Below, one piece after another: positions 1-23,054 of a stretch of DNA of 64,000 nucleotides (its first letter is position 1; every line of letters starts with the position of its first letter). The stretch spans positions 93,580 through 157,579 of the forward strand of contig CAOXTD010000002.1 in the NCBI GenBank assembly GCA_948560265.1. The letters are read 5' to 3'. A program made the position numbers and the translations under genes. The stretch comes from an uncultured Clostridia bacterium (GTDB taxonomy: Bacteria > Bacillota > Clostridia > TANB77 > CAG-508). The notes under the pieces are model-generated. The model did not search any database. It had not been told where the DNA came from and worked only from the letters and a program-made list of their open reading frames with translations.

Positions 1-354
1 ACTATTTTCTGATAATGCTTTTGCTATTTTTAATTTTGTTTCTTCTCCTCCTGATAGATTATTACCTTCTACATTATGAACATTTAATTTACCTAATATA
101 GATTTATCTTCTATGTTGGTTATATCTATTTGCTCTAATTGTGGAATATATGATATTTTTCCATAAGTTTTAATCTCTGCTGTTTTTAATTCTATTTGTC
201 CTAATAAGACTTTTAATAATGTTGTTTTGCCACTACCATTTTTTCCTACTATTCCGATTTTATCATAGTTATATATTTCTAAATTATCAATATTTAAAAT
301 TTGTCTTCCATTATATTCTAAATCTATATTTTTTGCTTTTACTATTAAATCCAT
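1..354 (-). CDS. ABC-F family ATPase, N-terminal part (gene continues beyond the window start); resembles the Vga/Lsa/Msr-type ARE ABC-F N-terminus
   Basis: Reverse-strand translation MDLIVKAKNIDLEYNGRQILNIDNLEIYNYDKIGIVGKNGSGKTTLL... has Walker A GKNGSGKTT and the LSGGE signature. The ATG at 354-352 is preceded by an AAAGGAG ribosome-binding site (RBS). The gene is shorter than the 60-aa ORF-track cutoff because it is partial. Confidence 0.6.
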   Translation of the reverse strand, partial: MDLIVKAKNIDLEYNGRQILNIDNLEIYNYDKIGIVGKNGSGKTTLLKVLLGQIELKTAEIKTYGKISYIPQLEQIDITNIEDKSILGKLNVHNVEGNNLSGGEETKLKIAKALSENS

Positions 355-560
355 TTATTTACTCCTTTATTACATTTCGTATTTTTATACGAGTTACTGT
401 AATAATGTTCTTATCACGAAATAACTCGTGATCTTACCATATTCTTGGTATCATATTTATCTCTCCTCTACAACTTACTAATTGATGTTACTATTATATA
501 ATAAAAGACTGACATTATCAACTAATTATTAGCCCTATATATTGTAATTTTTCGAGATGA

Positions 561-1421
561 TTATCTAATTGAATCTTGAACTTGCTCTAATCCTTGTTTA
601 TCTGTTTTCTTTATTGCAATAAGCATAGTATTTGCAAATATTGATTCTATGTTATCTTCAGCGATATTATTTGTATATTGAAAAGTAAACTCATAATTAT
701 TTTCTTTTTCAACAGTATTTGCTAAACTTCTTTGTACTTTGACCGTTTTTACTTCTTCATCTTGAAATTTCCTAATTGTTAAGTATAAGTAATTTTCATC
801 ATTACTGTCAGCTACATTTACTACATTATATGTTTTTGTAAAAGTATAGCTTTCTGCTATACTATTTATTTCATTAGTTTTATTTTGAGAAATAATATTA
901 TTGATTGTTTCTAAATCTTCTGTTGAAATTGTCGCTTGTTTATCTCCTTTTTGTATTTCTTTGCAAGATTCTTTAATATAATAAATATCCTTATTTAATA
1001 TTATCTTGTGAGTATTTATTCCATTGCATATTTCTCCATTATATTTTGAATTTAATAATATATTTTCTATAATTCCTATATCTTTTATATCTGTAATAGT
1101 AATTGTTTGTCCTTCATATTCAATTTCAATAATATCAGCTTTTGGTAATTCATATTTCATAAACCAATTTCCCATTTTTACACCAATATTGCTTTCATAA
1201 GGCTCGTTTGGAGATACTCCAACATAACGAACTACTTTATAACCTAATCCCCAATAAGTTACTTTACTTCCATCATTGCTAACTACCTTTATGCAACACT
1301 TTGGCTCGTGTCCTGTTGTTACTCTAGCACTATCTGAATAATTTGTAATAATCCCTGCAACTATAAGTACAATTACCAATATTCCTATACTAATACCTAT
1401 TTTCTTTTTCATACGATACAT
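561..1421 (-). CDS. hypothetical membrane-anchored/secreted protein (N-terminal TM/signal)
   Basis: 286-aa ORF with an N-terminal hydrophobic segment KKIGISIGILVIVLIVAGII. No motif recognised. Confidence 0.45.
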   Translation of the reverse strand: MYRMKKKIGISIGILVIVLIVAGIITNYSDSARVTTGHEPKCCIKVVSNDGSKVTYWGLGYKVVRYVGVSPNEPYESNIGVKMGNWFMKYELPKADIIEIEYEGQTITITDIKDIGIIENILLNSKYNGEICNGINTHKIILNKDIYYIKESCKEIQKGDKQATISTEDLETINNIISQNKTNEINSIAESYTFTKTYNVVNVADSNDENYLYLTIRKFQDEEVKTVKVQRSLANTVEKENNYEFTFQYTNNIAEDNIESIFANTMLIAIKKTDKQGLEQVQDSIR

Positions 1422-1948
1422 CTCCCCACAATAATTTTTAATCTCAGCGATAACTTACTATTTATCGCTATCATTATAGCATATTATCAATAATTATTCC
1501 ATATACTTACACGAATTTTAATTCTAATTATCAAACTTCCAATTTTACGATTTTTTCTCTTATTTTTATTGTCTTTTTGCTATTTTTCGTAAAGCATATT
1601 TCTTATATTTTCCTCAAATTTTATAAAAAAACTATTATAAAAGCTAGTATTATAAATACATTGAAGGAATTTTACAAAAAAATGGAAGATAGTTACATAT
1701 TGCGACAGACATTTTAAATACTTATATGTATAATCTCCTTGAAATTTGTCTGTTGGATTTTGTAGTGATAATAAAATTCAATTAAACTAATAATTCCACT
1801 CTTTATTCGTACCAATTATATGACATAGAGTTTTATTAGTAGGCAAATTGTTTGTATTAAAGGAGGGTAGTTTTTTATTTATTTTGGGCCTAACTTCAAA
1901 ATTTCAATTAGGACAAGTTTCTAATTTAGAAATTTGGAGGTTATGTCT

Positions 1949-2434
1949 ATGAAAGACTATTTAAAAGATTCTTTATCTGATGAGGAGGAAAGATATATTT
2001 ATGGAATAATAAACAAAACCATTCTGAAATATTTTAGAAAAACAAATAAATTAGAAAAAGAAAGCATCTCTATAGATGATGATGATTTTCCAGAGGAGCT
2101 GTTGGCAACAGAAGATAAATACAACTTTGTTAATAAAAAACTTGAAACAAAAATACTAAGGGATATTTGTGCCTCAAAACCTTACTCTAAAGATGAAATG
2201 AAAGAAATTGTTGATACATTAGAAAATATAGCAGTAGAATTGGGACTTTCTATGTTTATAACACCATTGACTTTTAATGAAAAGTTAGTGGTGTTTTTAT
2301 TATATCTGAAAAAGTATCAGGTTAATCAAATTGCATTTTTGCTAGATGTAAATAGAAGAACAATTTGTAATAGGGTTAATTCATTCAAAAAGAAAGTAAG
2401 TGATGTAAAGGAGAATTTAAAAAATGGAAGATAA
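1949..2434 (+). CDS. sigma-70 region-4-like / HTH regulator (Tn916 Orf7-like position)
   Basis: C-terminal HTH QIAFLLDVNRRTICNRVNSFKKK. GGAGG RBS lies 8 nt upstream of the ATG at 1949 (the track ORF starts at a TTG at 1934). The gene precedes the xis-int module. Confidence 0.5.
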   Translation: MKDYLKDSLSDEEERYIYGIINKTILKYFRKTNKLEKESISIDDDDFPEELLATEDKYNFVNKKLETKILRDICASKPYSKDEMKEIVDTLENIAVELGLSMFITPLTFNEKLVVFLLYLKKYQVNQIAFLLDVNRRTICNRVNSFKKKVSDVKENLKNGR

Positions 2435-2612
2435 TAAATTTAATAATTACAATTTAACTAATGATGAAGTTAGCAAAATACTAATTGACTTTGAAAATAT
2501 AATTAAGTCAAAAGCATCAAAACTGGGAAAATATAAAGAAGATTGCGAGCAAGAAATAAAAATGCAAATATGTAAAGCACTTACTAAAAATAGAAAAAAA
2601 GAAAAAAATTAA
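2424..2612 (+). CDS. small hypothetical protein, overlapping the upstream gene (Orf8-like position)
   Basis: 62-aa ORF that overlaps the preceding gene by 11 nt. Coding status uncertain. Confidence 0.3.
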   Translation: MEDNKFNNYNLTNDEVSKILIDFENIIKSKASKLGKYKEDCEQEIKMQICKALTKNRKKEKN

Positions 2613-3123
2613 AAAAATTTTAAAAAACTTTCCCATTTTGGTTTTATATTGGAACTTATCTAGTAGAGGGGAAAAATAACAACTCAAATTTAAAAAGAAA
2701 GTGAGGTAAGTTCCAATGTGTTTTAAACTATTTATTTGTTATGCTGTTATTGCTTTTGAACATTTGCGAAAAGAATGTAGAATAAATAAAACGAAAATGA
2801 CAGCAAAAAAACTAGCAGATACAATTTGGCTTATGTACTATGTATATGACAAAAGAAAAATCAAAGAAATGGCTACAAATATTTTGAACAATTTGGAATT
2901 AACAGAATTATGAAAATATTTATATCATTTTTAATAATTTGTTGTGCAATTTTAAATGTTTTAGCAATAATTAATACAATTCGTTTTAAAAGGTTGAAAA
3001 TTAAAACTAGAAAAAAAGTTTATCATACACCAAGATTATCAGATTTACATGGAAAGGATTTTACAAACTATATAGATTATCTTACAGAAGGATTAAAGTG
3101 ATTTCTGTAGTTATCTATATGGA

Positions 3124-3621
3124 TTGTCATGTCAAAAAAGTGTTAGTAGATTTTTGCATTTTGGAGGTATGGAATTGAATAAAAGTAAGTTCAACAGAAA
3201 TGAAGAAATTTATAAATTATACTTTTACAGTAAAATGACATTTTCAGAGATTTCAAAAGTAGTTAACATTTCTATTAGTCAAGTTAGTAGAATTGTTAGA
3301 AAAAATGAAAATTATATAGATGAAAAAGCAAAAAGAATAAATGAAAATAAATTAAAAAACAAAGAATTTACAAAACAATTTATGAAGAAAAAAAGAAAAT
3401 CACAAACTATTGGAAATAGAGATGAAAAAGCTATTTTAGATTATTCGCACAATCAAGCAAGTTGTGAATTGTCTGGAAAGAGAACAATTAATAATCGAGC
3501 TTTTAGAAACTGGAACAGTAGTATCTATGAATTTCATCAAAAAACAAAGGAATACAGACTAAAAGAAGAATTTAAAAACAAAACTTCTTATGCTGTACCT
3601 AAAAAGATCAAATGGAATTGA
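3124..3621 (+). CDS. HTH DNA-binding protein (sigma region 4-like)
   Basis: MTFSEISKVVNISISQVSRIVRKNE is a helix-turn-helix motif. Basic C-terminus. Confidence 0.45.
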   Translation: MSCQKSVSRFLHFGGMELNKSKFNRNEEIYKLYFYSKMTFSEISKVVNISISQVSRIVRKNENYIDEKAKRINENKLKNKEFTKQFMKKKRKSQTIGNRDEKAILDYSHNQASCELSGKRTINNRAFRNWNSSIYEFHQKTKEYRLKEEFKNKTSYAVPKKIKWN

Positions 3622-3630
3622 GGGATTTTT

Positions 3631-4542
3631 ATGGGAGATATGAAAATATATGTTGTTTTAAATATTGATAATTTCAAAAAATTATGTGAGGAAAAACTAG
3701 GAGAAAACATAACTGCTGATGATTTTATTGCATTGGAAAGTTTAAAAAAAGAACAGGTACATTTAGTGCCTAAATTTAAAGCACTTATCGAAAAATACTA
3801 TATACGAGCTAATTCAGAAGAAAAGTCAGATTATGATATTTATATAAAAATAAAGGGTAACTGGTTTAAAAAAAATTTGATAGAGATTACAGAAAGAGAT
3901 ATTAAAGAATTACAAGATAATAACACTATAGAGGATCTAGAAGAATATGAATCTTGGAAAAATACTTTTGCTTATAAAATTATAGATGAAGATAAATTTA
4001 ATGATAGTATTTTACCTAAATTAACAGATGAAGAGATAATAGCATATTCTTCTATATTAAGCAGATTTAATAATGAAAATAATGATATTTTTCTTATTAA
4101 TTACAATGATAGATTTAAAATATTTGTACGTGATGCCAAAATTAATCAACTTCAATTAATGCCCTATACTACACTTAATAAAGAAGATTTATTAGATTTC
4201 ATAAAGAGGGATATTATTCAATATAGCAAATGTAGAATAAATGAAGAAAAAAGTCTAATTAAATTAGATGAAAATACTTATTTTTATACATTAAGTAGAA
4301 GATTCGCTTATGGAAATAGATTTTTAAGACAGATAAGAGATGGAAAGTATGTAGCAAGAGCTTTCTGTAATGATAAATTTAATAATAAAAGAGTTATACA
4401 TGCTTTTGGAGAAACAGAAAGAGAGGCAAAGGAAAAACTTAGAGAAAAAATATGTTTAATTATGGGACATAGAGCAGAAGATACAAAGAAAACAATGAAA
4501 GTATATGAAGAACTTATGGATAAAGATGATTATGATATATAG
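3631..4542 (+). CDS. hypothetical protein
   Basis: 303-aa ORF, operonic with the upstream HTH gene (9-nt gap). Confidence 0.45.
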   Translation: MGDMKIYVVLNIDNFKKLCEEKLGENITADDFIALESLKKEQVHLVPKFKALIEKYYIRANSEEKSDYDIYIKIKGNWFKKNLIEITERDIKELQDNNTIEDLEEYESWKNTFAYKIIDEDKFNDSILPKLTDEEIIAYSSILSRFNNENNDIFLINYNDRFKIFVRDAKINQLQLMPYTTLNKEDLLDFIKRDIIQYSKCRINEEKSLIKLDENTYFYTLSRRFAYGNRFLRQIRDGKYVARAFCNDKFNNKRVIHAFGETEREAKEKLREKICLIMGHRAEDTKKTMKVYEELMDKDDYDI

Positions 4543-4594
4543 CAGCTAAGATAAAAGGTTAAAATAATGTTTTTTATAGATAGGAGTGTAAAAG

Positions 4595-4786
4595 GTGGTT
4601 TCTACAGATGAAAAAATTGGTCTGAATATAAAAGAGGCAAGTAGATTAATGGGAATTAATGAGAAATTAATGTCAGAATTAACTCATGTAAAAGGATTCC
4701 CTTGTATAAAGTTCAAACGAAGAATTGTAATTAATAAATTGAGGTTACAAGAATGGTTTGATAAGAATAGTGGTAGATATTTTTAG
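4595..4786 (+). CDS. xis: excisionase (Xis-Tn-like, MerR-type HTH)
   Basis: 63 aa, KEASRLMGINEKLMSELTHVKGFPCIKFKRRIVINKLRLQEWF, immediately upstream of an integrase. This is the classic xis-int arrangement of Tn916-family elements. Confidence 0.7.
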   Translation: MVSTDEKIGLNIKEASRLMGINEKLMSELTHVKGFPCIKFKRRIVINKLRLQEWFDKNSGRYF

Positions 4787-4907
4787 TATCTATCATTATT
4801 TTTTTGCTCCTGGGGCTGACTTATTTTTTTGAGCACGTTATAATTAAGGAAAATCATTATATTTTGACTTATTCTGTTTTTCCTTAATTGGAGGGAGGAA
4901 AAATTTA

Positions 4908-6425
4908 ATGGTAAAACAGAATATAAATAATGATCAAGATAAAAATAAAGGAACTAGAAAGAAAAATGGTGAAGGTAACTTTAGAAAAAAAGGTAACAAA
5001 TGGGAAGGCAGAATATCAGTAAAGATAAATGGTCGTTCTGTTCAGAAATCAGTAAGTGGTGATACTGAAAGAGAGGCTAGAGATAAAGCCAAAGCATTAA
5101 AAAAGTTTTACGAAGAAAAAGAAAAAAAGTATGCTTATTTAAGAATAAAACAGTCTGAGGTAATATTAGAAGAATGGATTAAAATATGGGTAAAAGATTA
5201 TAAAAGATTAACTATTGCAGAATCCACTTTAGCAGGATATATATCTAAAATCAACTCATATATTAGACCTTATTTTAAAAATCGTAAAATTCAAGAAATC
5301 ACTAAACATGATATACAATTATTCATAAACCACTTATCCACTACAAAGGGGAAACAATCAAAAGATTTCTTATCTTTAAAAACAATTAAAGATACTGTAA
5401 AGATATTAAGAATGATTTTTGCTGATGCTGAGGAGGAAATGGAATTAATACCAACAAATCCAGTAAAGAAACCAAAATACCCTAAAAAACCAGCACCAAA
5501 AGAAAAAGAAATACTAAGTGTAGAAGAACAACTAGCAGTTACAAATATCTTATTATCAGAATATAATGGAATAGCTTTCTTAACATTATTTGTTTTAGGT
5601 GTTAGAGCAAGTGAATTATCAGGATTTTTATGGAAAGACTTAGATGACATTGTAAATGGAATACATGTAGAGAGAGGATTTCAAATCATAGATATTTATG
5701 ATGATGACTTGAATAAAGTTAGAGCAGAAAGAAAATATACTGAACTAAAATCTGAAACAAGTAATAGAATAGTACCAGTTATGCCTATATTAAAAGTAGC
5801 ATTAGAAAATTACAAAGCTGAAGTAATGAAACAATTAGGGATAACAGATGAAAGTATTTTAGACAATGAAAGTATGTTTAAAACTAAAAACGGAAATAAT
5901 ATTACAGCAGATTATCTAAGACATAGATTACATTATGTTTTAGACAAATATGGATATACCAAACACATTACAGTACACGAACTAAGACACACATTTGCAA
6001 CTCGTTGCCTAGAGGCTGGTGTTGATATGAAAACACTACAAACATTTTTAGGACATGCAGATTACAAATTGACTGCAAACACATACTCTCATGTATTAAG
6101 ACAAACAAAGAATAATCAAATACTAAAATACAATACTTATTTAACAGATACTATTCAAAAGAGTTTAGATGATGTTATGAATATAACAGAAGAAACTATA
6201 AAAGATCCAAAATTAAGACAAAAGGCTATTGATAATATGAAAAAGAATTTTGAATTATTAGTAGAGGCTAAACTAAGAGAAAGAGAAGAACAATTAAAAG
6301 AACAAAAAGAAGAAACAACAAGTGCTGAAAAAATTGCAGATACAAATATTGATAATAATGTTCAAAAAGAAAATGCAAAAAGATATATAGCAAAAAGAAC
6401 TATCAAAAGGAAAATACCTGCATAA
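4908..6425 (+). CDS. int: tyrosine recombinase / integrase (phage integrase family) with a K/E-rich C-terminal extension
   Basis: Catalytic region HELRHTFATRCLEAGVDMKTLQTFLGHADYKLTANTYSHV (R...HxxR...Y). 505 aa. Confidence 0.85.
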   Translation: MVKQNINNDQDKNKGTRKKNGEGNFRKKGNKWEGRISVKINGRSVQKSVSGDTEREARDKAKALKKFYEEKEKKYAYLRIKQSEVILEEWIKIWVKDYKRLTIAESTLAGYISKINSYIRPYFKNRKIQEITKHDIQLFINHLSTTKGKQSKDFLSLKTIKDTVKILRMIFADAEEEMELIPTNPVKKPKYPKKPAPKEKEILSVEEQLAVTNILLSEYNGIAFLTLFVLGVRASELSGFLWKDLDDIVNGIHVERGFQIIDIYDDDLNKVRAERKYTELKSETSNRIVPVMPILKVALENYKAEVMKQLGITDESILDNESMFKTKNGNNITADYLRHRLHYVLDKYGYTKHITVHELRHTFATRCLEAGVDMKTLQTFLGHADYKLTANTYSHVLRQTKNNQILKYNTYLTDTIQKSLDDVMNITEETIKDPKLRQKAIDNMKKNFELLVEAKLREREEQLKEQKEETTSAEKIADTNIDNNVQKENAKRYIAKRTIKRKIPA

Positions 6426-6577
6426 TTGGTCTTGACATATTCCAGTTTTACTGATAAAATAACTATAACATTAGCGGGGAATACTTAGGTTGTAATCTTT
6501 TAACAATTAGGGAAAAATTAGGGAAGATAATAAAATATCTTAGCAAACCCTATTGAAATAAGCAGTTTGAAAAATAT

Positions 6578-6632
6578 GCTCGTTGGGCTCATAACCCGAA
6601 GGTCGTAAGTTCGAGTCTTACCCCCGCAACCA
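6578..6632 (+). other. 3' fragment of tRNA-Met (anticodon arm CAT, variable loop, T-arm, acceptor 3' strand plus CCA) with no 5' half; candidate att site
   Basis: Sequence ...ttgggCTCATAAcccgaaggtcGTAAGTTCGAGTCTTACccccgcaACCA gives an anticodon stem TTGGG/CCCGA with loop CTCATAA, a T-arm GTAAG-TTCGAGT-CTTAC and a CCA end. No matching 5' acceptor strand (TGCGGGG) occurs upstream. Confidence 0.7.
6588..6603 (+). repeat. 16-bp core direct repeat CTCATAACCCGAAGGT (left copy, inside the tRNA fragment)
   Basis: Identical 16-mer at 27415-27430. The flanks also match: aaaaa(t)atgct upstream and TAAGTT downstream. Confidence 0.7.
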
Positions 6633-6643
6633 CAAATTTTATT

Positions 6644-6677
6644 AGAGTCGCAAGAGATTGTGGACTCTTATTTTTTT
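6644..6677 (+). terminator. rho-independent terminator downstream of the tRNA fragment
   Basis: Hairpin AGAGTC-gcaagagattgtg-GACTCT followed by a T9 run. Confidence 0.6.
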
Positions 6678-6808
6678 GACCTTGACGTAATTTTGACGTA
6701 AATGGGGACAGCTTGGGGACACAGGCTGTCAAAACCCTTTGAAATAGACTAAAACACGTCTTGTGGTTTTAAAAAAGCAACTTTTGTAATCATATTGAAA
6801 AAGAGTAA

Positions 6809-8011
6809 TTAGTTTTTATCTACCAATAAATTTTGCAAGACTATACCTGCACTTCTATTATGAGAAGCTAGGGGATGGACATAGAAATTGAATGTTGTAC
6901 TTATTTGAGCATGTCCTAATCTTGCTGCTACAACTGCTACATCTACATTTTGTGAAATAAGAAGAGTAGCATTTGTATGCCTGATACCATGAAAATTAAT
7001 TACAGGTAGTCCAATTCTTTTAATAAATTTACCAAACCATTTACTTACTGTATCTGGGTGCATAGGTTTTCCGTTATCTTGAACAAATAATCTATTAGAA
7101 TCGTGCCAGAATTCACCACAAAGTTCTTTTTGATTATCATACCATAACTTATATTCTTCTAACATTTCAACCACTGAATCAGGTATAGAAACATTTCTAT
7201 ATGAACTTGATGTTTTCGGTTCTTTTGTATATATACCTTTTTCAGGAAGATATTGGCTTGCTTTATTTATAGCAATTTCTTTATTCTTGAAATCAATATC
7301 ATTCCATTCAAGTCCCATTAATTCTCCAAGTCTTGCTCCTGTAAAAACATCTAAAATGATTGCAACTTTATACTTTATTTCATTTTCTTGAAGTGTATTC
7401 AAGTTATTTAAAAGAACTTTACATTGCTCATCATCATAGAATTTACGTTTTGCTCTAGAAGCTCTTGGCGGTTGAACTCTTTCAGCAGGGTTAAATGGTA
7501 TTAGTTGCCAATATACAGCTTTGTGTAGCATAGAACTTATTAATCTATGATGTTCTAGAATAGTTTTCTTAGATAATGGTTTTAAAGTTCTTTCTCCATT
7601 ATTTTTAGCAAGTCTTCTTATTTGTGTATCCTGTTCTAGCATATCATATAATTTCATAAGATCTGTTGGTTTGATTTTTTCTAAAGTAAAAGAACCTAAA
7701 TATGGTAAAATTCGAGTTTCTAGCATTCTTACATATCTTTTATATGTTGAAGGTGCTAATTCTTTTTCACCATAATTTATTTGCCATACATGAAAGAATT
7801 CTTCAAATGTTATAGGCTTTCCTTCTGGAATAAGTCCATGATTTGCTTCAGTTACAAATTCAGCTAATGCTATTTCTGCATCTTTGCGAGAACCATGAAT
7901 TGTTTTTGTTCTTTTAGCTCTAGAACCATCTAAATTCTTACCAGTTGATACTATTAACCTGTAAGTATTTTCACCTCTTTTTTCAATACTCCCAGCCATT
8001 GCCTTTTTCAC
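6809..8011 (-). CDS. int: tyrosine recombinase / integrase
   Basis: C-terminal HGIRHTNATLLISQNVDVAVVAARLGHAQISTTFNFYVHP (HxxR...Y). The N-terminal region looks like an SAM-like arm/core-binding domain. 400 aa. Confidence 0.85.
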   Translation of the reverse strand: MKKAMAGSIEKRGENTYRLIVSTGKNLDGSRAKRTKTIHGSRKDAEIALAEFVTEANHGLIPEGKPITFEEFFHVWQINYGEKELAPSTYKRYVRMLETRILPYLGSFTLEKIKPTDLMKLYDMLEQDTQIRRLAKNNGERTLKPLSKKTILEHHRLISSMLHKAVYWQLIPFNPAERVQPPRASRAKRKFYDDEQCKVLLNNLNTLQENEIKYKVAIILDVFTGARLGELMGLEWNDIDFKNKEIAINKASQYLPEKGIYTKEPKTSSSYRNVSIPDSVVEMLEEYKLWYDNQKELCGEFWHDSNRLFVQDNGKPMHPDTVSKWFGKFIKRIGLPVINFHGIRHTNATLLISQNVDVAVVAARLGHAQISTTFNFYVHPLASHNRSAGIVLQNLLVDKN

Positions 8012-8058: not shown

Positions 8059-9198
8059 TTAAATATTTTTTTCATCGTATGTATCAAATTTATCAATACT
8101 TTTCTTCATCCATTCGTTTAATTCACTTTCAGTTGTTTTTCCTTTTTTATATTTTTTTAAGTTTTGTTGAGAAGATTGTTTCCATTGAGCAAAATATTTT
8201 GCTTTTTCGCTATAAGGATTTATTTTTCCTCTTTGAATTTGCATTAATATTCTTTGATATGTCTTCTTGTATAGCTTATAAGCTTCTACATCTCCAATAC
8301 TTTTTTTAAATGTTTCAGCAGCACCTATAACCCTACAAGATTTTTCATCCTTATAATAAACAATATCACAATATATTTCAGATTCTTTTGATGTAGGAAT
8401 AAAGTATTTACCACAATTTTGACATTTTTTAATAGTAACATATGTATTCATTGCAATTTCATTTAAAGAAACAAATATCATATTAGATAAGTATGATGAG
8501 TGATAAATGTGACTTGTTTTATAGCTTAGTTTTCCATCTTTGATACTTTTTCTAATTTTACTTGGATTAGCTAAGTTTGGACTTAATCCATCTGTTCCAT
8601 TAACAAATAAGGTATTAAAATATATATTTGTTTGTCTAGTATAATTGTATAAATCATTTCTTAAAGCATATGATAAAAACTTAATATGAGATAGTTCGTC
8701 CTTATAAGAATCGGAATTATCTAAATTATATACAAAGTTAATACACTCTTTAATTTTCTCTTGTAATTCTATAATCCTTTCTTTTGATTGCTCAAAAATT
8801 TCAGTATAATATTTAAAAAATTCACTAGGAATTTCACAAGATTTTGCTTTAGATATGTTAGTTACATATTCTTTTAATAGTTCAATTCCATAAAAACCAA
8901 AGAAAGTATTATAAGATGTTAGAGAATTTGAAAAGTCAGCATTTAAGAATCTAATTAGAAACATACCATATTTTTCTTCTAATGGATGAAAATAATCTCT
9001 TTTAACTAAAGTACAATTGGTGTTAGGAAATTTATATGTAGTATGTTCTAATAATATTTCTTTATATGTATTATTTATCTTTTTATTAAATGTTAAATTA
9101 CAATTCATTAAAGGTGTTACATAGAACTCCTTTTTTTCTTTTTTATTAAACCATATGACAAAACCATTATCAGTTGGTATTTCGGGGTTTTTAAACAT
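8059..9198 (-). CDS. hypothetical protein with a C-terminal zinc-ribbon-like CxxC...C motif
   Basis: 379 aa with CQNCGKYFIPTSKESEIYCD. Downstream of and operonic with int on the minus strand. Confidence 0.5.
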   Translation of the reverse strand: MFKNPEIPTDNGFVIWFNKKEKKEFYVTPLMNCNLTFNKKINNTYKEILLEHTTYKFPNTNCTLVKRDYFHPLEEKYGMFLIRFLNADFSNSLTSYNTFFGFYGIELLKEYVTNISKAKSCEIPSEFFKYYTEIFEQSKERIIELQEKIKECINFVYNLDNSDSYKDELSHIKFLSYALRNDLYNYTRQTNIYFNTLFVNGTDGLSPNLANPSKIRKSIKDGKLSYKTSHIYHSSYLSNMIFVSLNEIAMNTYVTIKKCQNCGKYFIPTSKESEIYCDIVYYKDEKSCRVIGAAETFKKSIGDVEAYKLYKKTYQRILMQIQRGKINPYSEKAKYFAQWKQSSQQNLKKYKKGKTTESELNEWMKKSIDKFDTYDEKNI

Positions 9199-9431: not shown

Positions 9432-9626
9432 GTGGTACAGGAAGTAAAAAGGACAACATTAACAATGAAAGAAGCAGCTGATTATTTAGGAATATCATAT
9501 TGGCTCATTAATCAATTAGCAAAAAGAAAGCAAATTCCTTGTTCTAAAGTCGGCGGAAAGTATTTATTCAGAGTGAAAGTATTAGATGAATATCTAACAC
9601 AAAAAGAAGAAGCATCGGTACAATAG
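9432..9626 (+). CDS. excisionase-family / HTH DNA-binding protein
   Basis: 64 aa, MKEAADYLGISYWLINQLAKRKQIPCSKVGGKYLFRVKVLDEYL, typical of Xis/AlpA-like HTH proteins. Confidence 0.6.
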   Translation: MVQEVKRTTLTMKEAADYLGISYWLINQLAKRKQIPCSKVGGKYLFRVKVLDEYLTQKEEASVQ

Positions 9627-9641
9627 GAAGGAGGTAAGAAG

Positions 9642-10139
9642 ATGGTACAAGTCCAGTGGCTAAAAGTTTACACAGATATTTTTGATAATGAGAAAATGAA
9701 GAAATTACTCAGAAATAGAGATGGGGACACTTATTTTAGAGTATGGATTCAACTTTTAACATTAGCAGCAAAAAGTAATCAACATGGAGCTATCTTACTT
9801 GGAGAAAATATTCCAATGTCAAAAGAAGATCTGGCTAAGGTTATGCACAAAACTTTGAATAAATTGGAAAAGATTATACAAGATTTACACAAACTTGACA
9901 TGATTATTGTTGAAAAAGATACAATCTGTATAAAAAATTGGGATATGTACCAAAGTGCCGATGAGTTAGAAAAGCTCCGAGAATCAAACAGAAGAAGACA
10001 ACAGAAATATAGAGAAAAACAGAAAGATAGTAACGTTATAGTAACATCAAGTAACACTGAAGATAAGAATAGAGAAGAAAAAAATAAGAATAGACAAGAT
10101 ATAAGTAATTTAGAAAATGAAAGTGGTTTTAAAGAGTAA
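9642..10139 (+). CDS. phage replisome organizer N-terminal domain protein (replication initiation)
   Basis: N-terminus MVQVQWLKVYTDIFDNEKMKKLLRNRDGDTYFRVWIQLLTLAAKSNQHGAILL matches the conserved replisome-organizer N-domain. Confidence 0.6.
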   Translation: MVQVQWLKVYTDIFDNEKMKKLLRNRDGDTYFRVWIQLLTLAAKSNQHGAILLGENIPMSKEDLAKVMHKTLNKLEKIIQDLHKLDMIIVEKDTICIKNWDMYQSADELEKLRESNRRRQQKYREKQKDSNVIVTSSNTEDKNREEKNKNRQDISNLENESGFKE

Positions 10140-10185
10140 AGAAGTAATTAATTTGAAAAAGAAAATTAGAATGGAAGGAGGAAAT

Positions 10186-10998
10186 ATGGTTCAGACAACA
10201 ACTTTAAATAAAGTAAATTGCAAATTTTGTGGTAAAGAGTTACAACAAAAAGAAGTGGTATTTGAATTAAATAATAGACAATTTTCAATAAAAGGACAAG
10301 CTGAAAGATGCAATTGTGAAGAGTCTAAAATATACTGGGAAAAGATTGATTATGAAAAAAAGCAAAAAGAAATCAAGGCAGAAATACAAAGAAAAAACGA
10401 TGTAATTAATAAATTATACAATAATAGCAAGATGAATATTAGATTAAAATCGTATAGTTTTAATAATTATAAAGTTACTTCTGAAAATAAAAAAGCTCTT
10501 AATAAAGCAAAAGAATATGCAGAAAATTATATTAAAAAAATAGAAAAAGGTAGCTTGTTTATAACAGGTGGAGTTGGAACTGGAAAAACACATTTAGCAG
10601 CAAGTATTGCTAATGAATTAATAAAAAATGAAATACCAGTTGTATTCGGAACATTAATTAATTTGTTAAATGATATTAAAGATAGTTATAGTTCAGATGG
10701 TGAAAAAGAAGGATATATTATTGAAAGATATTCCAAAGTGAACATGTTAATAATAGATGATTTAGGAAAAGAAAGACCAAGTGAATGGACACTAGAAAAG
10801 TTATTTACAATTATAAATAATCGTTATGAAAATAATTTACCAGTAATAATAACTACAAATTATAATCGAGATAAATTGAGAGAAAGGCTTTCAAATAATA
10901 AAAATTATGAGATTGCAGATTCAATAATTTCAAGATTATACGAGATGTGTAAAGGCATTGCTATTTATGGAAATGATAAAAGAAAAGAGTTAGTATAA
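10186..10998 (+). CDS. DnaC/IstB-like AAA+ helicase loader with N-terminal CxxC zinc-binding region
   Basis: Walker A GGVGTGKTHL, Walker B MLIIDDLG and sensor IITTNY. GGAAGGAGG RBS before the ATG at 10186. Confidence 0.7.
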   Translation: MVQTTTLNKVNCKFCGKELQQKEVVFELNNRQFSIKGQAERCNCEESKIYWEKIDYEKKQKEIKAEIQRKNDVINKLYNNSKMNIRLKSYSFNNYKVTSENKKALNKAKEYAENYIKKIEKGSLFITGGVGTGKTHLAASIANELIKNEIPVVFGTLINLLNDIKDSYSSDGEKEGYIIERYSKVNMLIIDDLGKERPSEWTLEKLFTIINNRYENNLPVIITTNYNRDKLRERLSNNKNYEIADSIISRLYEMCKGIAIYGNDKRKELV

Positions 10999-11268: not shown

Positions 11269-12651
11269 GTGAAATTTAGAATGGCGACAACGAGTTTATG
11301 GAAGGTAGAAAGTAGAATAGATCATGTTGTAGATTATGCTACTGATAAAGATAAAACTAAAAATAAATATTATAATCAATTTAATAATTTTTCTAGTGTA
11401 AGAGATTTACTTTCGTACGCTACTAATCCAGATAAAACTGAAAAACAATTTTTTACAACAGGAATTAATTGCAAAGTAGAAGATGCAGTTAAGCAAATGG
11501 AACTTGTAAAAACATTATATGGAAAAGAAGATGGAATACTTGCTTTTCATGGTTACCAATCTTTTGATAAAGGAGAAGTTACTCCAGAAATTGCTCATGA
11601 AATAGGAGTTAGACTTGCTGAAGAAATGTGGGGAGATAGATTTCAAGTTGTAGTCTCAACTCATTTAAATACGGATCATATTCATAATCATTTTGTAGTA
11701 AATTCAGTTTCATTTAAAGATGGGCTTAAATACTATAGTGATTTAACTAATACAGCTTTACTAAGAAAAACATCAGACGATTTATGTGATGAATATGGAT
11801 TAAGAGTGCTAGAAGAAAAGACATGCAAATCTGGAATTAATTTTGAAAACTTTTATAAAAAATCTATTAGAGAATCGGATTATTATAAATTTGCAAAAGA
11901 AGATTTAGACTATGCAATAAAACATTCTTATACTCAAAAAGAATTCCATCAGTATTTATCATCAATGGAATATAGTTATTATTATAGAGCAAATAAATTA
12001 TGCATAAGGAGAGAACCGTATAAAAGAAATATCAGAGTTGAAAGAGCTTTTGGAGAAGAATATTCTGTAGAAAATATTAGACAAAGAATAATAGCAAATG
12101 ATTTTATTCCAAAAGAGAAAATAATTCCATATAAAAGAACTACTTTAAAGTTCTATGTAAGGAAAAGTGTTTTTAGAAAGGCATATAAACCTAAAGGAAT
12201 AATTGCTTTATATTATTACTATAGATTTTTATTGGGATTGCATAAAAGAAATAATGTGCAACATAAACTGACTCCAAAAATGAGAGAAGAAGTAAAAAAG
12301 ATGGATAGGTATTCAGAAAGAATAAGATTCTTGTGTAAATATAAATTAGAAACAATTGATAATGTAGATGAACTGAAAACAAAGAAGTTAAGAGAAAAGC
12401 AAGATATACTAAATACTAGAAATAGATTATATTATAAAAGAGGCAAAGTAGATAATGAAACAGAGAAAAATGAGATTACAAAACAAATAATTGCAGTTAC
12501 AACTGAGCTAAAAAGGGTAAAAAAGGAAATTAGAATGTGTGATGAAGTTACAGATAGTGTTTCTGGTATGAAGGAACAAATAAGAGAAACTGAAGAAAAA
12601 TCAAGGGAAAAGGAAAAACAAAAGAAGAAAGATAGAAAATATGAAAGATAG
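11269..12651 (+). CDS. relaxase / mobilization nuclease (MobA/VirD2-like, 3-His motif)
   Basis: HLNTDHIHNHFVVNSV is an HxDxxHxH-type metal-binding motif. The K/E-rich C-terminal coiled region is typical of Mob proteins. Confidence 0.7.
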   Translation: MKFRMATTSLWKVESRIDHVVDYATDKDKTKNKYYNQFNNFSSVRDLLSYATNPDKTEKQFFTTGINCKVEDAVKQMELVKTLYGKEDGILAFHGYQSFDKGEVTPEIAHEIGVRLAEEMWGDRFQVVVSTHLNTDHIHNHFVVNSVSFKDGLKYYSDLTNTALLRKTSDDLCDEYGLRVLEEKTCKSGINFENFYKKSIRESDYYKFAKEDLDYAIKHSYTQKEFHQYLSSMEYSYYYRANKLCIRREPYKRNIRVERAFGEEYSVENIRQRIIANDFIPKEKIIPYKRTTLKFYVRKSVFRKAYKPKGIIALYYYYRFLLGLHKRNNVQHKLTPKMREEVKKMDRYSERIRFLCKYKLETIDNVDELKTKKLREKQDILNTRNRLYYKRGKVDNETEKNEITKQIIAVTTELKRVKKEIRMCDEVTDSVSGMKEQIRETEEKSREKEKQKKKDRKYER

Positions 12652-12814: not shown

Positions 12815-14368
12815 ATGATAAATAACAGAGAAAGAGAAGAACTACATAAAGCAATATGGTCAATAGCAGATGATTTAAGAGGTTCAGTAGATGGATGGGA
12901 TTTTAAACAATATATTTTAGGTATAATGTTTTATAGATATATTTCAGAAAATATAACAAATTATATAAATGAGGGAGAAAGAAAAGCAGGAGATATATCT
13001 TTTGATTATGCTAAATTAAAAGATAATGAAGCAGAGACTGAAAGAGATAATCTTGTTAAAGAAAAAGGGTTCTTTATTCTACCATCAGAATTATTTGCAA
13101 ATGTAGTAAAAAGAGCAAGAGATGATGAAAATTTAAACGAAACATTAGAAAAGATATTTAATAATATAGAAAATTCCGCAAAAGGTGCTGAAAGTGAAGA
13201 TGACTTTTCAGGTCTATTTGACGATATAGATGTAAATAGTAATAAGTTAGGAGCTACAGTTACAAAAAGAAATGAGAAACTTGTAAAAATACTAGAAGGA
13301 ATAGCAAGTATCAATTTAGGAAATTATCAAGATAACCAAATCGATGCATTTGGAGATGCTTATGAATTTTTAATGAGTATGTATGCATCGAATGCAGGAA
13401 AATCAGGGGGAGAATTTTATACACCACAAGAAGTTAGTGAACTTTTAACTAAACTTGCTATTGTTGGGAAAACATCAGTAAATAAAGTATATGATCCTGC
13501 TTGTGGTTCAGGTTCATTACTATTAAAGTCTGCAAAGATATTAGGAAAAGAAAATGTTAGAAATGGTTTTTATGGACAAGAGATAAATTTAACTACATAT
13601 AATCTTTGCAGAATAAATATGTTCTTACATGATATTGGATATGATAAATTTAATATTGCATGTGAAGATACATTAGTTTCTCCACAACATTGGGACGATG
13701 AACCTTTTGAAGTAATAGTTTCAAATCCACCATATTCAATTAAGTGGGCGGGAGATGATAATGCAGTTTTAATAAATGACCCGAGATATTCACCAGCAGG
13801 TGTACTAGCTCCAAAATCAAAAGCAGATTTTGCATTCATTATGCATTCTCTTTCATGGTTAGCAACAAATGGTACTGCATCAATAGTATGTTTTCCTGGT
13901 ATTCTTTATAGAGGCGGATCAGAACAAAAAATAAGAAAATACTTAATTGATAATAACTTTGTTGATTGTATTATTCAATTACCTGATAATTTATTCTTTG
14001 GAACAAGTATTGCAACTTGTATAATGGTATTAAAGAAAAGCAAAAAAGATAATAGCACCTTATTTATAGATGCAACAAATGAGTGTGTTAAGGTAACAAA
14101 TAATAATAAATTAACTGATGATAATATAAATAATATTATAGAGATATTTAAAAATAGAGTAGATAAGGAACATATTGCAAAAATAGTATTGAATGAAGAA
14201 ATTGCCAAAAATGATTATAATTTATCAGTTGCAACTTATGTAGAAAAAGAAGATACAAGAGAAAAAATCGATATTATTGAATTAAATAAAGAAATAGATG
14301 AAATCGTTGAGAGAGAAAATAAACTTCGTATTGAAATAGCTAAAATAATTGCAGATATAGAGGTGTAA
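12815..14368 (+). CDS. hsdM: type I restriction-modification system methyltransferase subunit HsdM
   Basis: N6-adenine methyltransferase motif IV VSNPPYS, SAM-binding DPACGSGS and an HsdM N-terminal domain. 517 aa. Confidence 0.9.
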   Translation: MINNREREELHKAIWSIADDLRGSVDGWDFKQYILGIMFYRYISENITNYINEGERKAGDISFDYAKLKDNEAETERDNLVKEKGFFILPSELFANVVKRARDDENLNETLEKIFNNIENSAKGAESEDDFSGLFDDIDVNSNKLGATVTKRNEKLVKILEGIASINLGNYQDNQIDAFGDAYEFLMSMYASNAGKSGGEFYTPQEVSELLTKLAIVGKTSVNKVYDPACGSGSLLLKSAKILGKENVRNGFYGQEINLTTYNLCRINMFLHDIGYDKFNIACEDTLVSPQHWDDEPFEVIVSNPPYSIKWAGDDNAVLINDPRYSPAGVLAPKSKADFAFIMHSLSWLATNGTASIVCFPGILYRGGSEQKIRKYLIDNNFVDCIIQLPDNLFFGTSIATCIMVLKKSKKDNSTLFIDATNECVKVTNNNKLTDDNINNIIEIFKNRVDKEHIAKIVLNEEIAKNDYNLSVATYVEKEDTREKIDIIELNKEIDEIVERENKLRIEIAKIIADIEV

Positions 14369-14369
14369 A

Positions 14370-15617
<1,248 letters not shown>

Positions 15618-15627
15618 GGGGAAGAAA

Positions 15628-18600
15628 ATGAGTAAATATAATGTAGTAATTGAAACAAGTAATTCTACTGTTGTAGCTGAATATGAGCCTTTAAAAAGAA
15701 AATCGGATAGTTATCAAAGTGAAGCTGCACTTGAAAAAGAATTTATAAGAATGCTAACTGAACAGGGATATGATTATTTAGAAATTCACGAACAAGATGC
15801 TTTAGTTACAAATCTTCGTAAACAATTAGAATTATTAAATGATTATAAATTTACTGAAAGCGAATGGGAAAGATTTTTTAATAATAACATAGCAAATAAT
15901 AATGATGGTATTGTAGAAAAAACTAGAAAAATTCAAGAGGATCATATTCAAGTATTAAAAAAAGATGATGGAACAAGTAAAAACATTTATCTTTTAGATA
16001 AAAAGAATATTCATAACAATAGATTACAAGTCATAAATCAGTATGTTGAAAATAATGGGAACTATGATAATAGATATGATGTTACTATTCTTGTAAATGG
16101 AATTCCCTTAGTTCATGTTGAATTAAAAAGAAGAGGTGTTGCTTTAAAAGAAGCATTCAATCAAATAAATAGATATCAAAGAGACAGTTTTTGGGCAGGT
16201 AGTGGGCTTTATGAATATATACAGATATTTGTTATATCAAATGGAACAAATACAAAATATTATTCTAATACTACAAGAGAAAGCCATATAAAAGAACAGA
16301 GTAAAACTAGAAATAAGAGTAAAAAAACAAGTAATAGTTTTGAATTTACAAGTTATTGGGCAGATGCAAATAATAAAGTAATAAATGATTTAGTTGATTT
16401 TACTAGAACTTTTTTATCAAAACATACTATTTTGAATGTATTAACAAAATATTGTGTATTTACTTCTGAAGAACTTTTATTAGTAATGAGACCTTATCAA
16501 ATTGTCGCAACAGAAAGAATACTTAATAAAATAGAAGTATCTACTAATTATAAAAAAATGGGAACCATTGATGCGGGAGGATATATTTGGCATACAACAG
16601 GGTCTGGTAAAACACTAACATCTTTTAAGACAGCACAACTTGCAACTAATTTAGAATATATTGATAAGGTATTATTTGTGGTTGATAGAAAAGACTTAGA
16701 TTATCAGACAATGAAAGAATATGATAGATTTGAGAAAGGTGCAGCTAACGGTAATAGGAGTACAAAAGTACTTCAAAAACAATTAGAAGATACAACTTCA
16801 AAAATAATTGTTACAACTATTCAAAAATTAAGTGAATTTGTAAAAAGAAATCCAAGTCATCCAGTATTTCAAAAGCATTTAGTATTGATATTTGACGAAT
16901 GTCATCGTTCTCAATTTGGTGATATGCACAAAATGATAGTTAAGAACTTTAAAAATTACCATTTATTTGGGTTTACAGGAACACCTATATTTGCTAAAAA
17001 TGCCACTAATAAGTCTAATCCTGATTTTTGCACAACTGAGCAGGCTTTTGGAGATAAATTACATACATATACAATAGTTGATGCTATAAATGATGGAAAT
17101 GTACTTCCATTTAGAATTGATTATATAAATACAATTAAGAAAAAAGAAGGAATGACAGACAAAGAAGTACAAGCTATAAATACTGAAGAAGCTTTATCTT
17201 CTTATGAAAGAGTTAGCAATGTAGTAAGTTATATAATTGAACATTTTGATCAAAAAACAAAAAGAAATTCATTTTATGATTTAAAAGGACAAAGATTAAA
17301 TGGCTTCAATTCAATTTTTGCAGTAGCATCAATACCAATGGCAAAGAAATATTATTTAGAATTAAAAAAGCAATTAGAAGAAAAACATAAGGATTTGACT
17401 ATTGCAACGATATATTCTTTTGCAGCAAATGAAGAAGATACTACTGATGGAATATTAGATGATGAGGGATTTGAAACAGAATTATTAGACCAAAGTTCAA
17501 GAGAGTTTTTAGATTTTGCAATAGATGAATATAATAAAAAATTTAAAACAAACTTTTCGTCAGAGGGTAATGGTTTTCAAGATTATTATAAAGACTTATC
17601 AGATAGAGTTAAGAAGAGAGAAGTTGATTTGCTTATAGTTGTAAATATGTTTTTAACAGGTTTTGATGCTACAACATTAAATACATTATGGGTAGATAAA
17701 AACTTAAAACAACATGGACTAATACAAGCATATTCAAGAACTAATCGTATCTTAAACTCAGTAAAATCTTATGGCAATATAGTTTGTTTTAGAGATTTAC
17801 AAGAACAAACAAATGATGCAATTGCATTATTTGGAGATAAGGATGCATCAGGAATAGTTTTATTAAAATCTTATGAAGATTATTATTACGGGTATGAAGA
17901 TGATAAAGGTAAAAAACAAAAAGGATATGAAGAAAGAATAGCAGAGTTACTTCAAAAATATCCATTAGGAGAACAAATAGTAGGAGAACAAGCTCAAAAA
18001 GACTTTATTGTTTCTATGGGAAATATTTTAAGACTTAAAAATATATTATCTTCATTTGATAGATTTGAAGGAAATGAAATACTTTCTGAAAGAGATTTCC
18101 AAGACTACATAGGAACTTATACGGATTTATATGAAGAATTTAAATCCAGAAAAGATAATGGAGAAGTAGAAAGTATAAAAGATGATGTAGTATTTGAGAT
18201 GGAACTTGTAAAACAAGTAGAAGTAAATATTGATTATATATTGATGTTAGTTGCAAAATATCATCAATCAAATTGCACAGATAAAGAAATATTAGGTTCA
18301 ATTGATAAAGCAATAAAATCAAGTTTAGCACTTCGTTCTAAAAAAGAACTTATTGAAACATTTATATCAAAAATAAATACAAATACAGATGTAATGAGTG
18401 ATTGGACTAAATTTGTTAAAGAACAAGAAGAAATTGACCTAAGAAATTTAATTGAAGAAGAAAACTTGAATGATGAAGAAACAAGAAAATTTATAGATAA
18501 TGCATTTAGAGATGGACAAGTTAAAACAACAGGGACAGATATTGAAAAAATATTACCACCAATGAGAAGATTCGGCGGAGGTAATAGGGCAGAAAGAAAA

Positions 18601-18759
18601 GAATCAATAATTGAGAAAATAAAGAAATTCTTTGAAAAATATTTTGGAATTTGGAGTTCAAATAATAACGAAGATACTATAGTATATGATATTACAGAAG
18701 ATGATACTGAAAGCTTAGCAATGGTAGCTGAAGAAGGAGAAGAATATAAGCATGAATAA
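15628..18759 (+). CDS. hsdR: type I RM restriction subunit HsdR (SF2 helicase/endonuclease)
   Basis: 1043 aa with Walker A TTGSGKTLT, DEAH-like FDECHRSQ, an N-terminal nuclease domain and an HsdR C-terminal domain. Confidence 0.9.
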   Translation: MSKYNVVIETSNSTVVAEYEPLKRKSDSYQSEAALEKEFIRMLTEQGYDYLEIHEQDALVTNLRKQLELLNDYKFTESEWERFFNNNIANNNDGIVEKTRKIQEDHIQVLKKDDGTSKNIYLLDKKNIHNNRLQVINQYVENNGNYDNRYDVTILVNGIPLVHVELKRRGVALKEAFNQINRYQRDSFWAGSGLYEYIQIFVISNGTNTKYYSNTTRESHIKEQSKTRNKSKKTSNSFEFTSYWADANNKVINDLVDFTRTFLSKHTILNVLTKYCVFTSEELLLVMRPYQIVATERILNKIEVSTNYKKMGTIDAGGYIWHTTGSGKTLTSFKTAQLATNLEYIDKVLFVVDRKDLDYQTMKEYDRFEKGAANGNRSTKVLQKQLEDTTSKIIVTTIQKLSEFVKRNPSHPVFQKHLVLIFDECHRSQFGDMHKMIVKNFKNYHLFGFTGTPIFAKNATNKSNPDFCTTEQAFGDKLHTYTIVDAINDGNVLPFRIDYINTIKKKEGMTDKEVQAINTEEALSSYERVSNVVSYIIEHFDQKTKRNSFYDLKGQRLNGFNSIFAVASIPMAKKYYLELKKQLEEKHKDLTIATIYSFAANEEDTTDGILDDEGFETELLDQSSREFLDFAIDEYNKKFKTNFSSEGNGFQDYYKDLSDRVKKREVDLLIVVNMFLTGFDATTLNTLWVDKNLKQHGLIQAYSRTNRILNSVKSYGNIVCFRDLQEQTNDAIALFGDKDASGIVLLKSYEDYYYGYEDDKGKKQKGYEERIAELLQKYPLGEQIVGEQAQKDFIVSMGNILRLKNILSSFDRFEGNEILSERDFQDYIGTYTDLYEEFKSRKDNGEVESIKDDVVFEMELVKQVEVNIDYILMLVAKYHQSNCTDKEILGSIDKAIKSSLALRSKKELIETFISKINTNTDVMSDWTKFVKEQEEIDLRNLIEEENLNDEETRKFIDNAFRDGQVKTTGTDIEKILPPMRRFGGGNRAERKESIIEKIKKFFEKYFGIWSSNNNEDTIVYDITEDDTESLAMVAEEGEEYKHE

Positions 18760-23027: not shown

Positions 23028-23054
23028 TACTAAAATTTGTGATAGGAGAAGAGA

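Follow-up and report, generated by a model that had tools for sequence, protein, structure and literature searches.

We analyzed a window of 64,000 nucleotides (nts) of DNA from an uncultured Clostridia bacterium (assembly GCA_948560265.1, contig CAOXTD010000002.1, positions 93,580 to 157,579 of the forward strand), in which the genes of two tyrosine integrases, IntA and IntB, converge on a piece of an initiator tRNA-Met gene. The analysis indicates, with a probability of about 0.85, that the window spans the junction of a tandem array, where two unrelated site-specific elements, here called A and B, have entered one initiator tRNA-Met gene. The right-hand 6.6 kb of element A is present (1-6597, plus strand), truncated by the window start, and element B (6588-27430, 20.8 kb) has both of its ends within the window. 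An earlier note, made from the sequence of the window, had proposed sequential insertions at one hotspot, and comparison with loci of other genomes (designated by L numbers below) bears this out, since A ends at 6597 in 10 contexts, B starts at 6588 in 11 left ends, and empty sites are found in two species. The GC content is low, approximately 24-34% over most of the window.

IntA and IntB flank the 55-nt tRNA piece from opposite sides, and a terminator hairpin follows the piece. In a profile search both open reading frames (ORFs) matched Pfam Phage_integrase and the N-terminal domain SAM_3, with Phage_integrase scores of 1.1e-18 for IntA (4908-6425, plus strand, 505 aa) and 1.5e-28 for the ORF of IntB (6809-8011, minus strand). 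The two proteins are 25% identical over 328 residues, in agreement with the first impression of two different integrases, and both are distantly similar to the integrase of Tn1549 (6EMY; E = 2e-8 for IntA and 2e-15 for IntB). The IntB gene proposed earlier was upheld and its start was moved: the GTG at 8011 falls inside the ribosome-binding site AAAGGAGG, look-up of the resulting 400-aa product gave no record, and the identical 396-aa product is present in 324 index blocks. Therefore, as far as the sequence can tell, the true start is almost certainly the ATG at 7999 (6809-7999, 396 aa). The identical IntA protein is present in 481 index blocks.

The tRNA piece (6578-6632, plus strand) reads GCTCGTTGGGCTCATAACCCGAAGGTCGTAAGTTCGAGTCTTACCCCCGCAACCA and covers the tRNA from the D-stem 3′ strand to the CCA end, with a CAT anticodon. 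The full genes of this tRNA-Met are of the initiator type, having C1 opposite A72 and a GGG/CCC anticodon stem. The piece begins 152 nts past the IntA stop codon and is followed by a hairpin with a T-run (6644-6677, plus strand; −11.4 kcal/mol, z = −2.7), matching the earlier placement of a tRNA 3′ fragment and terminator about 150 bp past the integrase gene; a simple terminator scan missed this hairpin, which we attribute to a loop exceeding the 8-nt limit of the scan. ARAGORN called no tRNA anywhere in the window, and Rfam at its gathering threshold found nothing there. The Rfam tRNA model scored 22.3 bits on the piece, under the gathering score of 29, as expected of a fragment. The window contains a single copy of the 48-nt core of this piece, against none in 100 shuffles. 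A search of the window for a second full copy of the fragment found none, the exact-match script returning only a 16-nt repeat, and there is no other tRNA-Met piece in the window.

Where A ends was determined from 10 distinct right ends in other contexts, which match the window up to GCTCGTTGGGCTCATAACCC, ...AAAAATATGCTCGTTGGGCTCATAACCC or ...TTTGAAAAATATGCTCGTTGGGCTCATAACCC, so that A sequence stops at 6597. The A region is 99.8-100% identical to loci with the same IntA in other genomes (L014-L023), the identity ending at 6632-6637 or at a neighbouring element, and colinear copies extend at least 19.6 kb leftwards of the right end. Past 6597 the copies carry differing tRNA 3′ parts, dependent on the host or the neighbour, and then unrelated DNA; these 3′ parts show compensating changes in the T stem (GTAAG/CTTAC, GTAGG/CCTAC, GATAG/CTATC and GGTAG/CTACC). 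At the empty sites of two species (L026/27/30/32 and L036/37/46/48) the tRNA-Met(CAT) gene is intact, at exactly the position that the end of A takes in occupied relatives. For species 1, comparison of the native gene (GCTCGCAGGGCTCATAACCCTGAGG) with the occupied site (GCTCGTTGGGCTCATAACCCTGAGG) shows that the right attachment site (attR) is a hybrid of TTGGG from A and CCCTG from the host. A therefore supplied the 5′ side of the loop, and the host the 3′ side. The segment that A shares with the gene is GCTCGTTGGGCTCATAA (6578-6594, plus strand), with a predicted crossover within GGGCTCATAA in the anticodon loop region. One further locus, L024, was considered as a copy of A and rejected, being a related but different element.

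The left end of A was found in other genomes. At the left attachment site (attL) in L045/L049, L121, L122, L124 and L018, the tRNA 5′ part runs to GGGCTCATAA and is followed directly by ATACCGACATACG, so that A begins directly after CTCATAA. The left-end sequence abutting the tRNA 5′ part starts ATACCGAC in at least four contexts, never with a restored tRNA, and ARAGORN called no tRNA at the left junctions of A. In GCA_948701455.1 a single contig contains both junctions, approximately 64 kb apart and in direct orientation. The left one lies by the chromosomal gene that borders the opposite side of the empty site, and it reads CGCGAGGTGGAGCAGTTGGCAGCTCGTTGGGCTCATAA and then ATACCGACATACG.... 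At the left junctions of L121, L122, L124 and L018 either the upstream flank varies or the host has another anticodon stem (GTCGGG), and since the junction stays the same amid these varied flanks and stems, the crossover of A would be confined to GGGCTCATAA. Every copy of A seen sits in a tRNA-Met gene or its fragment.

The attachment site of the free element (attP) of A shares only approximately 17 nts with the gene and supplies no tRNA 3′ part. Comparison of these junctions thus indicates that A splits the tRNA gene and does not rebuild it. The intact tRNA had been expected either beyond the left element or destroyed; the 5′ half is seen joined to the left end of A in other genomes, and of the two options destruction of the gene is favoured because A splits it without rebuilding. 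An intact tRNA-Met just left of position 1, which the earlier note had named as the refuting case, is contradicted by L119, a colinear copy of A that continues 13.1 kb further left with element genes only and no tRNA. No tRNA gene was found in the right 19.6 kb and the left 21 kb of A, approximately 23 kb in the middle being unread.

Two AATTAGGGA repeats 11 nts apart on the right arm of A (6503-6526, plus strand) are candidate arm-type sites of IntA. TTAGGGA occurs only five times in the 64 kb, two of them here. In L045 three more lie within 340 nts of the left junction of A, and elsewhere in that 20.7-kb locus there is just one overlapping copy on the opposite strand, in the same arm. Since these repeats lie beside both junctions and almost nowhere else, they tie the two ends to one attP.

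As a separate observation, positions 15616-21518 of L018 contain the left 5.9 kb of A (99.97% identical to L045) with the tRNA 5′ half, inverted, 4 kb to the right of IntA and after a short module like B′, the element type of an IntB relative described below. This arrangement is either a large inversion across most of A or a chimeric metagenome assembly.

The ends of B are marked by a 16-nt core, CTCATAACCCGAAGGT, whose left copy (6588-6603, plus strand) is repeated exactly at 27415-27430 (plus strand), which is the attR of B and closes the array. In 11 distinct left ends of B-type elements, which carry the identical IntB or a 56%-identical relative (B′), conservation starts exactly at CTCATAACCCGAAGG (6588) and runs on through the tRNA 3′ remainder, the terminator and a pair of GGGGACA repeats, and the left flanks are mutually unrelated. 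The remainder (6604-6632) with the terminator (together 6604-6677, plus strand) is kept in all B-type copies regardless of the left flank. On the right, 10 contigs carry the identical flanking helicase gene (27617-30316); four of them have another element at the left and share identity with the window from exactly 27415, one has a third type of arm, and the other five have the arm of B itself.

In L057, where B is alone, the left flank is a genuine host tRNA 5′ part, and ARAGORN calls an intact tRNA-Met with the 3′ part of B. This result indicates that B carries the tRNA 3′ part and regenerates the gene. On the left arm, TGGGGACA-N3-TGGGGACA (6703-6721, plus strand) forms a pair of candidate arm-type IntB sites kept in B and B′ copies, and the right arm has an inverted GGGGACA at 27218 and a direct pair at 27276-27294 (27218-27294 in all). 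Among the six plus-strand copies and one inverted copy of GGGGACA in the 64 kb, four of the six make the two pairs at the two ends of B. Between the left repeats and the IntB stop codon lies a weak Rfam match to tracrRNA (6739-6817; 25.3 bits versus a gathering score of 70, E = 0.058), probably a chance match in AT-rich DNA.

Conservation of A to 6597 and of B from 6588 overlaps within the tRNA piece. By this comparison the fragment is a chimera, in which the identity segment of A is joined to the tRNA 3′ end that B itself carries, and not a passive shared target; it corresponds to a chimeric internal attachment site, the attR of A fused to the attL of B. Positions 6578-6587 come from A, 6588-6597 are common to A and B, and 6598-6632 with the terminator come from B. 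Fragments of tRNA genes are reported to be common in bacterial genomes (PMC9897764), and the piece could in principle be a decayed or deleted pseudogene with the integrases as neighbours by chance. This can be practically dismissed, because conservation of A stops, and that of B starts, at precise nucleotides within the fragment, and three other integrases are found in the same architecture.

The chimeric site belongs to an array of two elements with integrases of their own, and the fragment at 6578-6632 and the core at 27415-27430 both lie on the plus strand. Each element is also found alone at the target, A in L014/L025 and L017/L035 and B in L057. The outer end of A is not visible from the window alone, and mobilizable elements elsewhere often lie within conjugative elements (PMC5704250), so that B could be pictured as nested inside A, with A resuming to the right of B. 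This is very improbable, because in genomes with A alone (L014, L017) the host chromosome follows directly after the CCA end, a boundary confirmed by the empty sites, and the locus rightwards of 27415 is native to the species, being common to conspecific contigs that have other elements at the left and no A sequence. The elements are therefore in tandem.

In other genomes the end of A is met by converging integrases of at least three families (B, B′ and D), integrase D being unrelated (26-27% identity to IntA as well as to IntB). In L019 a third element is followed by a second tRNA fragment, and in L005 there seem to be two or more elements ahead of the degenerate sequence, described below, that follows the right core. 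The empty sites in two species and the several integrase families converging on the end of A indicate that the locus is an insertion hotspot.

A different history would leave the same final sequence: as reasoned from the junctions, either order of insertion gives this structure, so B may have come first and A second, or A and B may have come as one composite by en-bloc transfer of an earlier accretion. The cores of both contain the CTCATAA loop, and whole composites are reported to excise and transfer (PMC5704250). We regard this as unlikely, although less so than the other alternatives, given that A and B each occur alone or with other partners in many genomes and that the same right-hand sequence after the core is used by three element types in the species, which fits repeated independent insertions; it would in any case alter the history of the array and not its structure.

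For the integration of A, IntA, probably aided by a putative excisionase (XisA), would recombine GCTCGTTGGGCTCATAA by exchanging strands within the 7-nt anticodon loop or beside it, leaving the tRNA 5′ part at the far-left end and the 3′ part after the right end. The gene would be split because the attP of A carries no tRNA 3′ part. IntB would use the 16-nt core CTCATAACCCGAAGGT, which overlaps the segment of A, and on landing in an intact gene B would rebuild the tRNA because its attP holds the tRNA 3′ remainder and terminator beside the integrase gene. The two cores are offset, and from this we infer a rule for the order of the array. A would need GCTCGTTGGG, on the 5′ side of the loop, which is absent from the fragments that B-type elements leave, so A could enter the intact gene only; this fits the position of A, always nearest the tRNA 5′ half in the loci seen. 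B-type elements could enter any fragment that keeps the core. In the source genome, the left junction of A is predicted to read CGCG(A/G)GGTGGAGCAGTTGGCAGCTCG..GGGCTCATAA followed by ATACCGACATACG, approximately 57 kb to the left of window position 1. The predicted attP sites are ...TTTGAAAAATATGCTCGTTGGGCTCATAAATACCGACATACG... for A and ...GCTGCTTAAATCCTCATAACCCGAAGGTCGTAAGTTCGAG... for B.

The right core of B is followed by a degenerate relic (27431-27470, plus strand; TTTAAGTTGAAATTCAAC...) where the tRNA 3′ remainder is expected. It agrees with the true remainder at 10 of 18 positions, and all 10 conspecific loci carry it unchanged. Possible origins are decay of an old terminal fragment or a rearrangement of the locus. 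When the relic was considered as the left end of a further non-restoring element, no tRNA 3′ piece was found further right in the window. As a minor feature, two perfectly complementary 7-nt arms separated by 1 nt (AGTTGAA A TTCAACT) form an inverted repeat within 27431-27448.

The right flank raises the question of whether B sits at a secondary site, a sequence resembling the tRNA core upstream of the helicase gene, and not at the original tRNA-Met locus. Such a pseudo-site is supported by the absence of a tRNA remainder to the right of the core, by the non-tRNA left flanks of many B-type copies, by relics in other Clostridia genomes that consist of the core only, and by the varied contexts of the helicase gene itself. 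Yet the end of A is fused directly to the core of B, and A has only ever been seen to enter a genuine tRNA-Met gene; in addition, several of the non-tRNA left flanks are accounted for by arrays in which an intact tRNA lies a few kb off (L055/L060/L061). We therefore consider a secondary site improbable and the shared tRNA-Met gene the better account of the locus.

Several points weigh against the tandem array in a split gene. The left end of A and the tRNA 5′ half lie outside the window, so that the split junction is taken from other genomes with the same element. The approximately 23 kb of A that were unseen could hold a replacement tRNA, or the 64 kb could be more than one element. The core at the right end of B is followed by a degenerate relic fixed in the species, which is not the tRNA 3′ remainder of a simple history. 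The arm-site and crossover assignments come from sequence patterns alone. The excision products that the earlier note advised looking for were not seen: exact-junction searches for attL and attP of A (two scans of metagenome_contigs, and viral_contigs) and for attP of B (viral_contigs) gave 0 matches and no excised circle. The boundaries of the elements, the repeats, the empty sites, the split junctions and the occurrence of each element on its own are observations; the exact crossover positions, the role of the repeats as arm sites, the activity of both Xis proteins, the order rule and a left junction of A in the source genome like those of other genomes are what we infer.

The sublocation of the crossovers can be compared with known systems. 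That of A is confined to GGGCTCATAA by the hybrid junctions, and the core of B starts at the loop. Islander records 125 tandem arrays at tRNA genes, and its class A islands have an attP centred on the anticodon (PMC4383910). B resembles these in its anticodon-loop crossover, the tRNA 3′ part it carries, the gene regenerated at one end and the displaced fragment at the other. In contrast, A uses the same sublocation with no regeneration, and the terminal fragment of the array is degenerate. Tandem accretion at a tRNA gene of an integrative and conjugative element (ICE) with an integrative mobilizable element (IME) is treated as common, as in IME_Sag2603_tRNAlys of Streptococcus agalactiae, with a chimeric internal site (attI) and integrases less than 30% identical (PMC5704250). 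The present array is like that composite in having adjacent elements in one tRNA gene, integrases less than 30% identical, differing att sites, a chimeric attI and a recombination module kept by each element. It differs in that the target is an initiator tRNA-Met gene, the predicted conjugative element on the 5′ side splits the gene, and the cores overlap in the anticodon loop. Such accretion being already known, the departure here is that the large element splits the tRNA gene rather than repairing it.

Integration that does not restore a tRNA gene is known in the tRNA-dependent lysogeny of mycobacteriophages, which carry a compensating tRNA (Guerrero-Bustamante and Hatfull 2024, PMC10865867). 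A is similar in that the target site (attB) lies inside a tRNA gene, the shared core is short and no functional tRNA is rebuilt. It differs in being a predicted conjugative element and not a phage, and no compensating tRNA gene is present in the approximately 41 kb of A read. Another element, on the minus strand of L047 (~9570-9860), disrupts the same tRNA-Met gene at ...CTCATAACCCA and has a complete tRNA-fMet of its own approximately 190 nts inside; in disrupting the host tRNA and carrying its own tRNA-fMet it is like tRNA-dependent lysogeny.

We suggest, tentatively and as a possibility on the doubtful side, that A is the conjugative counterpart of such non-restoring integration: a widespread gut element, with resistance-type cargo in some copies, that would reversibly split an initiator tRNA gene, with host redundancy or a replacement tRNA in its unread middle, the offset cores fixing the order of the array and the 3′ half of a B-type element completing the gene when A leaves. 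A conjugative element that splits an initiator tRNA gene would depart from the usual regeneration of the target and raises the question of initiator tRNA gene dosage in the hosts. The boundaries given here define, at nucleotide level, two very widespread and apparently undescribed elements of gut Firmicutes, B with four defence systems and A with swappable cargo. Knowledge of the att sites makes both trackable, and their excision testable, in metagenomes. The splitting of the tRNA gene by A and the very wide spread of both elements are the parts most worth following. In PLSDB only the tRNA piece and, at 75% identity, a stretch of a Fusobacterium record were matched, and neither A nor B had an annotated relative.

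From its sequence A is predicted to be a large ICE of approximately 64 kb, of which 19.6 kb from the right end and 21 kb from the left end were read. The right part encodes ABC transporters, small regulators and the recombination module. The left part, read in other genomes, encodes a sortase, a 1736-aa adhesin, a DnaG-like primase, the coupling protein of a type IV secretion system (T4SS) and a PrgI-like protein, and A is called conjugative because of the coupling protein, primase, sortase and adhesin. No VirB4-type ATPase or relaxase was seen in the approximately 41 kb read, the middle 23 kb or so being unread. Of four copies retrieved, three (L121 16496-17955, L122 and L123) have the coupling-protein gene predicted as a pair of ORFs, of 293 and 164 aa, and the contig of the fourth stops before this gene. 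The gene may carry a frameshift or be naturally split.

Within the window, A has a conserved regulatory block (1934-4542, plus strand) that is present in every copy and gives weak Pfam and NCBIfam matches. It consists of two proteins resembling sigma-70 region 4 or helix-turn-helix (HTH) proteins (1934-2434 and 3124-3621), small ORFs and a 303-aa protein. The next gene, encoding the putative excisionase XisA (4595-4786, plus strand, 63 aa), keeps its position directly upstream of the integrase gene in all copies. The pair of excisionase and integrase genes at 4595-6425 proposed earlier thus stands for the integrase, by its Pfam match, and XisA matches HTH_17 below threshold (24.1 bits versus a cut-off of 27), so that an excisionase is plausible on this profile. 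XisA gave no match to the Tn916-Xis family PF09035. Beyond IntA, a promoter-like site facing outward at the right end (6432-6460, plus strand; TTGACA-17-TAAAAT with TG) agrees with the consensus at 11 of 12 positions, a consensus match only. A Lys/Glu-rich C-terminal extension of approximately 100 aa (residues ~400-505, 6109-6425) follows the catalytic domain of IntA. Tyrosine integrases do not usually have such a tail, and its DNA yields low-complexity repeat matches elsewhere in the window (families D1 and D3).

The order of these genes had led the earlier note to describe a right end of the Tn916 family. The order is loosely alike, since Tn916/Tn1549 and A both have a sigma-like regulator, small ORFs, xis and int, all reading outward, and the family label was abandoned. 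The similarity of IntA to this group is distant (2e-8), XisA lacks a match to PF09035, and A is strictly site-specific for a tRNA gene, whereas Tn916 inserts at many AT-rich sites. In addition, A differs from Tn916/Tn1549 in its size of approximately 64 kb and in its transfer genes.

The swappable cargo of A is a 0.95-kb cassette in the window (541-1484, minus strand) with a gene for a 286-aa protein that matched no family in Pfam, NCBIfam or PADLOC. The cassette is also found at 99% identity in two unrelated contexts, among helicase genes in L001 and with TnpV and a relaxase in L002. In other copies of A the same slot holds Imm33, DUF6483, or a block of a tet-like GTPase, PadR, a glyoxalase and an Erm-like methylase, and the cargo of some copies includes tet-like, Erm-like and ABC-F genes.

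B has the gene content of an IME, judging from its own integrase, excisionase and relaxase, with no T4SS or mating-pore domain in any scanned ORF of 6588-27430. Next to IntB is a DUF6076 protein (8059-9198, minus strand; Pfam), which adjoins the integrase gene in most B and B′ copies and has no mention in the searchable literature. The predicted excisionase XisB (9432-9626, plus strand) matches HTH_17 (2.8e-11), Tn916-Xis (5.8e-6) and TIGR01764 (44 bits versus a cut-off of 28.8). It is followed on the same strand by a replication module of a replisome organiser and a DnaC/IstB-like ATPase (9642-10998; Pfam), a MobA/VirD2-type relaxase (11269-12651; PF03432, 7.5e-38) and the type I restriction-modification genes hsdM, hsdS and hsdR (12815-18759; Pfam). 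Further defence cargo (19769-26477, plus strand; PADLOC and Pfam) comprises IetA and IetS (19769-23027), Fic/PDC-S72 (23937-25007) and bSEFIR (25053-26477). A TnpV-family gene lies at the right end (26832-27233, minus strand; PF14198, 3.9e-40).

Pieces consisting of the core only, followed by non-tRNA sequence, were also found in other Clostridia genomes, CTCATAACCCGAAGG in L066 (20838), L106 (20108) and L110 (7761) and the shorter CTCATAACCCG in L072 (12810), which suggests that core-only relics or secondary sites are widespread. The helicase gene that adjoins the array at the right (27617-30316; AAA_11, AAA_12 and DUF2726) matches MkoA, MkoC and Hhe in PADLOC. In a genome_contigs scan its best match was 71-72% identical and the neighbourhoods were varied, so that the relic is not explained thereby; since these neighbourhoods in other genomes are unrelated, the helicase may be cargo of an island. 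Core-looking genes, comM and dprA, lie further right than the relic. The Mg-chelatase-like competence gene comM (31532-33205) is broken into ORFs of 274, 169 and 96 aa, with dprA next to it; a similar split in every conspecific contig makes a fixed pseudogene probable.

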